Positions 13,214-17,787 of a DNA stretch of 64,000 nucleotides are shown here, piece after piece. The notes under the pieces are model-generated. The model saw nothing but the letters and a program-made list of their open reading frames with translations. It searched no databases and was not told the DNA's origin. How positions within the stretch are numbered: position 1 is the first letter of the stretch; each line of letters starts with the position of its first letter. This DNA is from Candidatus Pyrohabitans jungbluthii (GTDB lineage: Archaea > Hydrothermarchaeota > Hydrothermarchaeia > Hydrothermarchaeales > BMS3B). Both the position numbers and the translations under genes were made by a program. The stretch lies in NCBI GenBank assembly GCA_002010065.2, contig MTMD02000011.1, forward strand, positions 3,910-67,909, written 5' to 3'.

Positions 13214-13888
13214 TCAAATCCCGCTGGCTAAGTCCAGGAGCACCGCTTTTGGGTCCTTAGCTTTAACCACACCACTGGCTAAAAGCACGCCCTCCGCGCC
13301 AAGCTCAATGGCTGCGCGCACATCCTCGCCCGAGCTTATTCCAGCGCCGCACAGCACCGCAATATCCTTGTTGATGTTCTTCACCGCCTCAACGCTGCGC
13401 TGCACCACCTCGGGCTCAGCCTTTGACACAGGTATGCCGGTGCCTATTAAGTCGGGAGGCTCCACCGCTATGCAACTCGGTCCAAGCTCTGCGCAGGCCT
13501 TGCTGGTGGCGATGTTGTTGGTGCAGACGACGGTGTAGAGGTCCAGCTCTTTCGCCCGGCTAACTATCGCGTCTATATCTGCGATTCGCATGCGGTGCTC
13601 GCTGTGGTTGACCAGCGTTCCCACTGCGCCAGCTTCCTTAACTGCCTCCAGCACCACATAGCCTGTGTGCGAACCAGGAGAGAAAGCTTCCACGTGCTGT
13701 GCCAGCACCGGTATGTTAACTTCTCTTGCAACAAGCGCCAGGTCAACCTGCTGAGGGCAGTAGGCTATGCTCACCCCTGTCTCCTCAGCAACACTCTCGC
13801 AGAGCCTCGCAAGCTCTATATCGCGAGCGCCCATACTTTCGCTGTACGCTTTCACATTGAGCATTATCACAGGCGTTTTTATTCTCAT
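13214..13888 (-). CDS. tpiA: Triosephosphate isomerase (archaeal short type)
   Basis: NVKAY, NHSEH, AVEPPDLIG, CGAGI, LLASG. Confidence 0.96.
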   Translation of the reverse strand: MRIKTPVIMLNVKAYSESMGARDIELARLCESVAEETGVSIAYCPQQVDLALVAREVNIPVLAQHVEAFSPGSHTGYVVLEAVKEAGAVGTLVNHSEHRMRIADIDAIVSRAKELDLYTVVCTNNIATSKACAELGPSCIAVEPPDLIGTGIPVSKAEPEVVQRSVEAVKNINKDIAVLCGAGISSGEDVRAAIELGAEGVLLASGVVKAKDPKAVLLDLASGI

Positions 13889-13921
13889 TCGCTCACCCAC
13901 ATCAATTGGTTGCAGGAGGAT

Positions 13922-15037
13922 TCACTCCACCTTCTCAAAGCGCTTCTCGAGGCGTTTGAGCACGCCTGGCAGAGTGGTGTACTCCATGTCCTCCAGGGGT
14001 AGGCGGTGGGGTTCGAAGGGGCCGTGGCGGCGCATGTATTCGGCGACCTCCTGCGCTTTCCTGCGGGTGTAATCAAAGCCGGGGTCGTCGAAGAGATCCA
14101 CTGGTCCAACAAGCTTGCCGTTTGCCACCTGGAAGCCCGCTGCAACTACGCGGGGCGGGCCGTCAAAGCGCGTGCACCTCGCATCTTTAAAGCTAACCGG
14201 CATTATTGGTCCATTGTGCGAACCCCGCATCCACCCGCTCACCAGGTGTGGGAAGGCAAAAGCCTCAAGAACCTCACCCAGCGCGGGCAAGCCGGACTGC
14301 GACCTCACGAGAGCGACAGGATCGTCCTTGCCAACGTACTCGCCTGCGATCTGGTACAGCTTCTCTGTGCTCACAACAGCGACGGCTTCATCCTTATCTA
14401 TCTTGTGCCCTTCCTTGGGGTAAACCCGCTTAATCACATAGCGCGACTTGGCGCCGATTAGTGCCAGAAGGTCATACATCTCCTCAGGGGTGCTGAGTAT
14501 TACGCGGCGGTGCTCCATGATATCCCATACCTCAAAGCGGAAGCCCATGTGGCAGCTGGGGTCTATGACCAAGCCTGCGGTGTTGAAGGGGTCAGCGAAT
14601 ATTTTAAATATGGGCAGATTGAAGGCACCTGGCTCTGTCTTGTCCATCATGAACGCAACAAGGGGCTCAGACTTGCGCTCCTTAAACTCAAGCTCCGCCA
14701 CACCCGGACCCATGCCGCGGATGTTGCCTGAGAAGGCGTCGCTCAGCAAATCCTGACCAGCGCCGTACAGCTTCAGCTCCTTGGCTCTAGCTGTGGCTGC
14801 CTCAAAGGCGCGCCACGCCAAGCCGTGCACCTCTTCGCTGTCCACGCCGCGATAGTGGCTCATAACCAGCTCCAGGTCATCGCCAGCACTCAGCACGTGG
14901 AAGTCGGCGATAACACCAGTCTCCTTTCCTTCGCTGAGAACCTTCTCAGCCTCCTGCTTGAGCTCCTCGTGCACTGAAACGTGCCCGGGATAGCCACCCA
15001 CATCTGCCTTAATCAGGCTTACAGTAACCTTGCTCAT
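13922..15037 (-). CDS. fbp: Bifunctional fructose-1,6-bisphosphate aldolase/phosphatase (FBPase class V)
   Basis: KADVGG.PGH, YGAGQDLL, YVGKDDP, GWMRGSH, FEPHRL..MEYTT. Confidence 0.97.
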   Translation of the reverse strand: MSKVTVSLIKADVGGYPGHVSVHEELKQEAEKVLSEGKETGVIADFHVLSAGDDLELVMSHYRGVDSEEVHGLAWRAFEAATARAKELKLYGAGQDLLSDAFSGNIRGMGPGVAELEFKERKSEPLVAFMMDKTEPGAFNLPIFKIFADPFNTAGLVIDPSCHMGFRFEVWDIMEHRRVILSTPEEMYDLLALIGAKSRYVIKRVYPKEGHKIDKDEAVAVVSTEKLYQIAGEYVGKDDPVALVRSQSGLPALGEVLEAFAFPHLVSGWMRGSHNGPIMPVSFKDARCTRFDGPPRVVAAGFQVANGKLVGPVDLFDDPGFDYTRRKAQEVAEYMRRHGPFEPHRLPLEDMEYTTLPGVLKRLEKRFEKVE

Positions 15038-15049
15038 TCTTATCTCCTC

Positions 15050-15847: not shown

Positions 15848-15852
15848 TGCCA

Positions 15853-16758
15853 CTACCTCAGCGCCAGCCCTACTATCTCATCAACGCTACTGTAACCGTT
15901 CTCTTCCAGATATTCCTTAATCTCCTGAGAAACCTTTTTAAAGATGGTTATGCCGCGGTAGAGCACCCCTGTACCTATCTGCACCGCCCTCGCGCCAGCG
16001 AGGAAGAACTCCACTGCATCTTCGCCGGTGGTTATGCCTCCACATCCTATTACTGGAATATCCACCTCCCGCGCTATCTCATAAACGCAGCGCAGAGCAA
16101 TGGGCTTGATACACGGCCCTGACAAACCGCCCACCTCGTTGCCAAGTATCGGCTTGCCCGTAATCAGGTCTATCTTCATGGCGCGGAGTGCGCCTATTGC
16201 GGTTATGGCATCTGCGCCAGCGTCTTCACAAGCTTTGGCGATTGCCACTATATCCCCTGCGCCCGCGGTGAGTTTCGCAAACACAGGTAAGCTCACCCGC
16301 TTCTTTACCTCCTTAACCACCTCGTGGCTGAGTTCCTCGCTGTACCCGAAGAAGGCTCCTGCTTTGCCCACATTGGGGTAAGAGATGTTCAGCTCAATTG
16401 CATCGACGCCATACTTCTGCAGCGTCTCAGCAACGGCGGCATATTCACCAAAGTTGAAGCCGTAGACGCTCCCGATTACGGGAACGCCGCCCTCCTTGGC
16501 TACGCGAATCTCGTCGCCGAACTCCTCATAGCCGGGGTTCGCTAAGCCAATTGCGCTTATAAGTCCGCCGTTTATCTCAACTACGGTAGGATTCCTGTGC
16601 CCCTCCCTCGGCGTGAGCCCTATCGATTTGGTTACAATTGCGCCAGCGCCTCCGCTCAGCGCTACACGCTTCAGGGCAGCGCCGCTTGTGCCTAAGATAC
16701 CGGAGGCAAGCATGGTGGGGTTTCTCAGCTTTATTCCGCAGAGCTCAACCTCTAGCAT
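15853..16758 (-). CDS. pyrD: Dihydroorotate dehydrogenase family 1B-like FMN protein with altered active site
   Basis: TKS, GLANPG, KLT, GGLSG, GCGGI, VQIGT retained; ELNISYPN replaces ELNISCPN. Family certain, function doubtful. Confidence 0.7.
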   Translation of the reverse strand: MLEVELCGIKLRNPTMLASGILGTSGAALKRVALSGGAGAIVTKSIGLTPREGHRNPTVVEINGGLISAIGLANPGYEEFGDEIRVAKEGGVPVIGSVYGFNFGEYAAVAETLQKYGVDAIELNISYPNVGKAGAFFGYSEELSHEVVKEVKKRVSLPVFAKLTAGAGDIVAIAKACEDAGADAITAIGALRAMKIDLITGKPILGNEVGGLSGPCIKPIALRCVYEIAREVDIPVIGCGGITTGEDAVEFFLAGARAVQIGTGVLYRGITIFKKVSQEIKEYLEENGYSSVDEIVGLALR

Positions 16759-16764
16759 GCTCGC

Positions 16765-17787
16765 CTACTCCATGGCCTTGCCTATGTAGCTTGCGAGGTC
16801 TACCATGCGGTTGCTGAAGCCCCACTCGTTGTCGTACCAGGCTAAGACCTTGGCGAAGTTGCCCTTTCCGCCTATGACCTTTGTGAGAAGCCCGTCCACT
16901 ATCGAGGAGTGGGGGTTGCCTATTATGTCGCTGGACACAAGGGGAAGCTCAGAGTACTGCAGAATCCCGCGAAGTTCGCCCTCGGCGGCGTTCTTGAACG
17001 CGCTGTTTATATCTTCACGGGTAACCTCACTCTCCAGCTCAACGGTTAAGTCGGTGATGCTCCCGTCAGCGACGGGAACGCGCAGGGACATGCCGTCAAG
17101 CTTGCCTGCAAGCTCAGGCAGCACCAAGCCAATCGCCTTGGCTGCGCCAGTCGTCGAGGGCACAATGTTTATCGCCGCCGCCCTCGCCCTGCGAAGGTCT
17201 TTGCTCTGCGCGTCGAGCAGACGCTGCGACGCGGTATAAGCGTGGCACGTTGTCATAAGCCCGCGCTTCACCCCAAAGCTCTCGTGAAGCACCTTTACCA
17301 CGGGTGCAAGGCTGTTCGTGGTGCATGAAGCGTTGGAAATGATGTTGTGTTTCTCTGCATCGTAGCTTTTATGGTTCACACCCATCACTATGGTTATGTC
17401 CGGCTCCTTGGCTGGCGCCGAGATTATTACCTTCTTCGCCCCAGCTTCTAAATGCTTGCTCGCGCCATCGCGGTCCCTGAAAAAGCCGGTACACTCTAGC
17501 ACGATGTCCACGCCCAGCTCCTCCCATGGCAGATTCGCAGGGTCGCGCTCTGAGAGCACGCGAACCTCCTTTCCATCGACGTTTATCACACCCTCCTCTG
17601 CGCTCACCTCAGCGTCGAAGACGCCGTGCACAGAGTCGTACTTCAGCAGGTGCGCCAGCGTTGGGGCGTCGGTTAAATCGTTAACAGCAACAATCTCAAC
17701 ATCGTCGCGAAAACCGCCGTTGCGAAAGGCGGCACGGAAGATGCATCTACCTATCCTCCCGAAACCATTGATACCTACCCTGACCAT
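16765..17787 (-). CDS. gap: Class I (bacterial-type) glyceraldehyde-3-phosphate dehydrogenase
   Basis: [34 protein letters not shown]. Confidence 0.96.

Follow-up and report, generated by a model that had tools for sequence, protein, structure and literature searches.

The window analysed here is a 64,000-nucleotide stretch of DNA from the archaeon Candidatus Pyrohabitans jungbluthii (Hydrothermarchaeota; assembly GCA_002010065.2, contig MTMD02000011.1, positions 3,910 to 67,909 of the forward strand). On its minus strand, at 15853..16758, it encodes PyrD', a 301-amino-acid paralogue of PyrD, the catalytic subunit of class-1B dihydroorotate dehydrogenase (DHOD). The gene is coupled to pyrK (15050..15853, minus strand), which encodes the [2Fe-2S] electron-transfer subunit that binds flavin adenine dinucleotide (FAD) and nicotinamide adenine dinucleotide (NAD). 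Together with PyrK, PyrD' probably forms a neofunctionalised NAD(H)-linked oxidoreductase with a flavin mononucleotide (FMN)/[2Fe-2S]/FAD chain, to which we give a probability of about 60%; it would no longer oxidise dihydroorotate and would serve a new substrate or acceptor. A new role of this kind is the best reading because the genome holds a second, canonical pyrD and because the changes in PyrD' are targeted, under selection and, at S68 and Y127, shared by its homologues. A neofunctionalised flavin/[2Fe-2S] oxidoreductase had already been proposed in a preliminary description of this DNA. Conservation and selection support the idea of a new role, but not the link to gluconeogenesis that had been drawn from the gene context.

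A class-1B PyrD with an altered substrate site

By sequence and fold, PyrD' is a DHO_dh FMN barrel. It matches PF01180 with 245 bits and exceeds the cut-offs of two curated PyrD models, NF005574 (362 bits, cut-off 269) and TIGR01037 (379 bits, cut-off 270), so that automatic annotation calls it a dihydroorotate dehydrogenase. It does not belong with PreA of the NAD-dependent dihydropyrimidine dehydrogenase, whose model NF006183 gives 170 bits against a cut-off of 335. The Atlas structure model of PyrD' has a predicted local distance difference test score (pLDDT) of 0.93 and template modelling (TM) scores of 0.96-0.97 to DHOD clusters, and every one of its structural look-alikes in the Atlas is a DHOD cluster. 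Its best solved relative is the class-1B PyrD-PyrK enzyme of Lactococcus lactis (PDB 1ep1, 1ep2 and 1ep3; E 3e-57 over residues 2-294), with which it has in common the fold, the FMN motifs and an adjacent PyrK with FAD/NAD domains and four cysteines. The FMN motifs TKS, KLT, GGLSG, GCGGI and QIGT are all present and residues K44, N124, N129 and K162 are retained. Among the 13 genomes found to carry this form of PyrD (see below), the FMN motifs and the N-terminal lysine are kept with the sole exception of G036, which has glutamine in place of the lysine.

The substrate site is a different matter. In the alignment to the PyrD chain of the L. lactis enzyme (1ep1_A), S68 (codon AGC, 16555..16557) stands in place of an asparagine, Y127 (codon TAC, 16378..16380) replaces the catalytic cysteine of the S-C-P-N loop, which reads NISCPN in L. 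lactis, and G189-A190 (codons GGC, 16192-16194, and GCA, 16189-16191) replace the asparagine-threonine of the INT motif, all of these codons being on the minus strand. Position 68 is asparagine in all 36 canonical sequences compared; these likewise have asparagine at 189 and threonine or serine at 190. PyrD' is thereby set apart from the L. lactis enzyme by a tyrosine for the cysteine, a serine for one ring-binding asparagine and Gly-Ala for Asn-Thr, as well as by the presence of a canonical PyrD in the same genome. Both the codons and the alignment agree with the preliminary description, in which the intact FMN motifs, the four replacements and the position of the Y127 codon had been reported.

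In L. lactis DHODA, the orotate ring is bound by four asparagines and a serine or threonine, and the residues changed in PyrD' are presumably those on the N3/O4 edge of the ring. The catalytic base is a cysteine in the class 1A and 1B enzymes and a serine in classes 1S and 2 (PMC10395836, Table 1); mutants in which the cysteine or the lysine was changed to alanine fail to complement, according to the passages of the same article that deal with them. PyrD' lacks two of the catalytic features by which class 1B is defined, and on its residues it would best be filed as a new subtype within the family and not as a DHOD. The changes are not an assembly artefact, because 12 other genomes share these residues. 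Moreover, among the differences listed for the public-run contigs X5, X8 and X14 none falls at an altered codon, 8 further differences lying outside that listing. A search for RNA runs listed none.

Canonical PyrD and PyrK in the same genome

The assembly comprises 15 contigs and is 99.95% complete. A second PyrD is encoded on contig C8 (locus L001, 890-1792) and is the canonical NISCPN-like copy for which a search had been advised in the preliminary description; it has the motifs LNAVG, NLSCPN and AINT and is 68% identical to PyrD' over the full length. Profile searches also found pyrB, pyrC, pyrE and pyrF in the genome, each above cut-off. With these genes and a canonical PyrD present, PyrD' is not needed for pyrimidine synthesis. 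The two paralogues match the same NCBIfam and Pfam models and show no systematic difference outside four alignment columns that are described below. They differ in their motifs and also in their neighbours, as the canonical pyrD is not followed by pyrK but overlaps a 174-amino-acid gene of the PF01947 family, which is chorismate-pyruvate-lyase-like.

The PyrK of the window (267 amino acids from a GTG start; NF000796 342 bits, cut-off 224) matches PF10418, PF00175 and PF00970 in profile searches. The four cysteines of its C-terminal [2Fe-2S] domain, taken as a criterion for PyrK from the relevant part of PMC12221290, are conserved in 33 of the 33 PyrK rows aligned. The only other PF10418 match in the genome belongs to an NfnA-like gene (275 amino acids) that lies beside an NfnB/GltD-like gene (459 amino acids) on contig C2 (locus L006, 44-2247). 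This pair is the only other PyrK-related module, and the window pyrK is therefore the sole true PyrK found in the genome. In the same way, one true PyrK was observed per genome across the class except in G013, which has two (L178, 5053-5865, and L066, 6937-7722), one in a gap-pyrK-fbp-tpi operon and one with pyrD'. No column was found among the 33 PyrK rows that separates the PyrD'-linked PyrKs from the others.

The neighbourhood of the canonical pyrD is itself conserved. A canonical pyrD followed by the 174-amino-acid PF01947 gene (Rv2949c-like chorismate pyruvate-lyase, UTRA-like), usually with an overlap of a few bases, was observed at 23 of the 36 canonical-pyrD loci; in the genome studied here the pair occupies 369-1792 of L001 on contig C8. 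This pairing spans most families of the order and has no obvious link to pyrimidine synthesis.

Distribution and conservation of the paralogue

PyrD sequences with both S68 and Y127 are called the S/Y form in what follows, and those of the N/C type canonical. All of the 38 species genomes of the class in the collection were examined. The S/Y form was found in 13 of them (G000, G002 to G011, G013 and G036), which span three genera of the window's family, two more families of its order and one second order. The possibility, allowed for in the preliminary description, that the changes might be private to this assembly is thereby set aside. A canonical copy is also present in 12 of these 13 genomes, and none was found in G010, which is 62% complete. 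In G013 the S/Y and canonical copies lie on one 1.9-Mb contig, so that their pairing is not explained by binning error. All 23 single-copy genomes of the class that yielded a sequence have the canonical type.

The same two types were seen in wider searches. Among the 144 closest metagenome proteins in a collection of 5.8 billion proteins, 14 were of the S/Y type and 130 of the N/C type, while a tblastn search, from which 80 matches in 80 genome loci were fetched, gave 5 S/Y forms, all from metagenome-assembled genomes (MAGs) of Hydrothermarchaeota type. For the distribution outside the class, the evidence consists of these 144 close metagenome proteins and 80 tblastn matches; no scan aimed at the motif was made, and distant forms could be missed.

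Neither S68 nor Y127 varies among the 13 genomes or among the 14 metagenome S/Y proteins. Between the 13 S/Y and the 36 canonical sequences, only four columns are disjoint, namely 41 (isoleucine versus valine or leucine), 68, 127 and 189. In the S/Y form column 189 is glycine or threonine, and column 190 is alanine, serine or proline versus threonine or serine in the canonical sequences. Whether homologues would share S68, Y127 and G189 had been posed as a check in the preliminary description; the first two are shared throughout, but G189 is not.

Where dS is unsaturated, PyrD' orthologues have ratios of nonsynonymous to synonymous substitution rates (dN/dS) of 0.02-0.13. Moreover, dN was lower for PyrD' than for the canonical copy in 66 of 66 genome pairs, with values from 0.347 versus 0.357 up to 0.014 versus 0.120 (G000-G004). 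A block of relaxed positions was sought in the canonical copies of the two-copy genomes and none was found. The earlier view that the changes are unlikely to be sequencing error or random decay is borne out by their presence in 12 other genomes and by these ratios. The S/Y form is a conserved paralogue and not a product of decay. Its residue conservation and the purifying selection on it indicate that PyrD' is a selected and functional protein, with its divergence confined to the substrate pocket.

Phylogeny and gene conversion

A quick maximum-likelihood (ML) tree unites the 11 S/Y sequences from the window's order in a single clade (Shimodaira-Hasegawa-like approximate likelihood ratio test, SH-aLRT, 99), whose sister group consists of the canonical copies from the window's family (SH-aLRT 92). 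The PyrD' of G036, the genome from the second order, groups with its own canonical copy in the full-length tree (SH-aLRT 99). This pairing is due to a gene-conversion tract at codons 201-260, over which the G036 paralogues (L067, 6066-6971, and L048) have 90-100% nucleotide identity and 70-100% third-position identity; over codons 1-140 the nucleotide identity is 57-68%. The pocket residues of G036 lie outside the tract and stay different.

With five site columns blanked, an approximately unbiased (AU) test did not reject the grouping of every S/Y form in one clade (p 0.125), and a tree built on columns 1-195 left the S/Y branching without resolution. The sequences would fit one origin of the S/Y form as well as several. 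The PyrK tree places the PyrD'-linked PyrKs from G011 and G013 as sisters (98) and the G036 PyrK with the window's family (86), a pattern compatible with a pyrD'-pyrK pair that may have moved as a unit.

Gene context across the class

In the window, pyrD' and pyrK are the second and third genes of a tight cluster on the minus strand. The first is gap (16765..17787), for a type I, bacterial-type glyceraldehyde-3-phosphate dehydrogenase (GAPDH) of 340 amino acids (TIGR01534 466 bits, cut-off 367). After pyrK come fbp (13922..15037), for a fructose-1,6-bisphosphate aldolase/phosphatase of 371 amino acids (PF01950 614 bits; NF041126 589 bits), and tpi (13214..13900), for an archaeal triose-phosphate isomerase of 228 amino acids (NF003302 318 bits). 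According to the open reading frame (ORF) calls, the five genes are co-oriented, as had been described before, and no spacer exceeds 21 nt: gap and pyrD' are 6 nt apart, pyrD' and pyrK either overlap by 1 nt (with the GTG start of pyrK) or are separated by 5 nt (with the next ATG, at 15847), the pyrK/fbp spacer is 12 nt long with a GGAGG inside and the fbp/tpi spacer is 21 nt long. With GAPDH, aldolase/phosphatase and isomerase encoded together in one orientation, this is a gluconeogenic gap-fbp-tpi cluster. The type I GAPDH at 16765-17787 is the only phosphorylating GAPDH detected in the genome; the model for the archaeal type II enzyme, TIGR01546, found nothing in this 99.95%-complete assembly.

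Much of this order recurs in the other S/Y genomes, in line with the synteny that the preliminary description had thought worth checking. In 12 of these 13 genomes gap immediately precedes pyrD', and in 11 pyrK immediately follows it; in the remaining two, the pair is split over two contig ends (G006) or the contig ends inside pyrD' (G010). fbp comes next after pyrK in 10 genomes, tpi then follows in 7, and the full five-gene order was found again in the second order of the class (G036).

The linkage to gap, fbp and tpi is nevertheless not specific to PyrD'. In family f8, a canonical pyrD stands in the order pyrD-pyrK-fbp or pyrD-pyrK-tpi in 5 of the 5 genomes with a match, and in family f9 gap is next to a canonical pyrD in 2 of 2 genomes. 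In families f4 and f6, gap adjoins pyrK with nothing between them in three genomes (L092 of G031, L094 of G028 and L096 of G015), and in family f3 pyrK adjoins fbp with no pyrD between (L078, G012). As pyrK adjoins gap or fbp even without a pyrD, it is itself a stable member of the gap/fbp/tpi cluster in the class. The clearest case is G013, which combines several of these arrangements: its native gap-pyrK-fbp-tpi operon lacks pyrD, its canonical pyrD is beside a PF01947 gene, and a separate pyrD'-pyrK pair stands alone among genes for GlmS, an MBL-fold hydrolase, a Gfo/Idh/MocA oxidoreductase and an Nre-like protein.

The gluconeogenic setting is thus ancestral to pyrD-pyrK in the class and predates PyrD'. 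The simplest history is an ancestral gap-pyrD-pyrK-fbp-tpi cluster, in which PyrD' is the copy left beside pyrK. Because the same positions are held by a canonical pyrD or by pyrK alone and because the G013 pair stands apart, the context is uninformative on the function of PyrD'.

Possible functions of PyrD' and PyrK

On the reading that we favour, PyrD' would derive from the catalytic subunit of a class-1B DHOD originally encoded beside pyrK. After duplication, the copy beside the chorismate-lyase-like gene would have retained the pyrimidine function, and the pyrK-coupled copy would have altered its substrate pocket by exchange of the catalytic cysteine for tyrosine and loss of two of the four ring-binding asparagines and the neighbouring threonine. 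The FMN site, the carboxylate-side residues (K44, N124, N129 and K162) and the remainder of the protein would have been preserved. Most likely, PyrD' and PyrK continue to form a complex, and its FMN/[2Fe-2S]/FAD chain would exchange electrons with NAD(H). The reaction at the FMN would involve a substrate or acceptor different from dihydroorotate and orotate, with Tyr127 as a candidate proton donor or acceptor. A more specific version, in which the DHOD B scaffold carries a new NAD(H)-linked activity, can be put forward only tentatively: the tyrosine may take over from the cysteine as acid/base, with chemistry of the ene-reductase or hydroxy-acid kind, and the substrate may be a small carboxylate that lacks the amide edge of pyrimidines. 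Selection may hold the active-site residues even as gene conversion with the canonical copy evens out the remainder of the gene, as seen in G036.

Several points weigh against a new enzyme. As far as searched, the S/Y form is confined to one archaeal class, which gives low comparative power, and neither the conserved cluster nor the stand-alone G013 locus suggests any pathway. Since each genome but G013 has a single PyrK, and since no alignment column tells the PyrD'-linked PyrKs from the others, a purely structural or electron-carrying role would fit about as well. PyrD' could then be a pseudoenzyme, acting as a partner without catalysis, or a flavin module that has no substrate, with Tyr127 filling or capping the former orotate pocket over the FMN. 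The sole task of PyrD' would be to stabilise PyrK or tune it, to relay electrons between NAD(H) and another protein, ferredoxin for example, or to form a pair with canonical PyrD. Such a role agrees with the coupling of the sole PyrK to PyrD', which leaves the canonical PyrD without a PyrK of its own, and with the lack of systematic difference between the paralogues apart from the pocket residues. The residues found in place of Asn189 and Thr190 are small and differ between members (G/T; A/S/P/Q), which would be expected of residues that merely make room, and isolated PyrK has an NADH-linked ferredoxin oxidoreductase activity via its exposed [2Fe-2S] cluster, as reported in the part of PMC12221290 that concerns this subunit. 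Yet in relatives with a single copy, PyrD and PyrK come from unlinked genes and assemble with no helper of this kind, and the invariance of S68 and Y127, the kept FMN motifs and a constraint tighter than that on the canonical enzyme suggest that the active site works and is not simply filled. On balance, we consider a purely supporting role rather unlikely.

Two further explanations are each improbable. If PyrD' were still a DHOD, with tyrosine as a fourth type of catalytic base and the second copy as a redundant or differently regulated isoenzyme, then the loss of two of the four ring-binding asparagines and the threonine along with the cysteine in every member would be hard to place, as would the retention of a canonical copy in all but one of the S/Y genomes and the lack of any single-copy genome with the S/Y form. 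The scores above the curated PyrD cut-offs, the four kept residues and the adjacent PyrK speak for this explanation, and the serine of classes 1S and 2 (PMC10395836, Table 1) indicates that a catalytic base can change. Even so, with the base and ring residues lost, the canonical enzyme alongside and the S/Y form never the sole copy, continued DHOD activity is unlikely. Slightly less probable still is the suggestion of the preliminary description that PyrD'-PyrK serves the enzymes of the gluconeogenic cluster, either as a source of NAD(P)H for the type I GAPDH or through activity on a triose- or sugar-phosphate substrate. It draws on the position of gap and fbp around the pair in most S/Y genomes, on the return of the five-gene order in G036 and on the persistence of pyrK by gap or fbp where pyrD is gone. 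This suggestion is not supported, as a canonical Cys/Asn pyrD occupies the same place in families f8 and f9 and G013 keeps gap-pyrK-fbp-tpi without any pyrD, its pyrD'-pyrK pair being elsewhere; in addition, nothing about the carboxylate-side residues that PyrD' has retained hints at a phosphate site.

Relation to known enzymes

A precedent for a neofunctionalised PyrD'-PyrK is offered by the fungal dihydrouracil oxidases, class-1A DHODH-like enzymes that are annotated as DHOD, use another substrate and occur beside a true DHOD, as described in sections of PMC10395836. By the same account, they keep the cysteine of SCPNV and are class 1A homodimers, whereas PyrD' lacks the cysteine and is of the 1B type with a PyrK. 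The PreA/PydA, X1 and X2 clades of the DHODase/DHPDase superfamily are likewise 1B-related FMN barrels with an Fe-S/flavin partner that act on other rings or have unknown substrates; in the portions of PMC4016543 devoted to them they branch outside 1B, whereas PyrD' nests inside 1B beside the canonical sequences of its own class. A literature search, which did not extend to the supplements of the cited papers, turned up neither a Tyr-type PyrD nor an account of this paralogue.

PyrD' is thus annotated as DHOD and yet has lost the cysteine base and half of the residues that bind the ring, while being more constrained than the true enzyme of the same genomes. Should a new activity be found, it would represent a fourth active-site type in a textbook enzyme family and a second electron outlet for PyrK in uncultured Hydrothermarchaeota. 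The case also calls for caution with guilt-by-association, as a deeply conserved operon position here reflects ancestry and not present function.

Genes upstream of the cluster

Upstream of the cluster and on the same strand, the window contains at 18326-20959 a futalosine-pathway menaquinone gene (PF02621, 272 amino acids) and two luciferase-like oxidoreductase genes (PF00296) with overlapping ends. The PF02621 gene and the two PF00296 genes also flank the cluster in G004; this trio was not seen in the fetched flanks of G002 and G003. Two ORFs, at 18067-18336 (89 amino acids, divergent from gap) and at 20993-21502 (169 amino acids), had no Pfam match, and the 89-amino-acid ORF is 97% conserved in G004.

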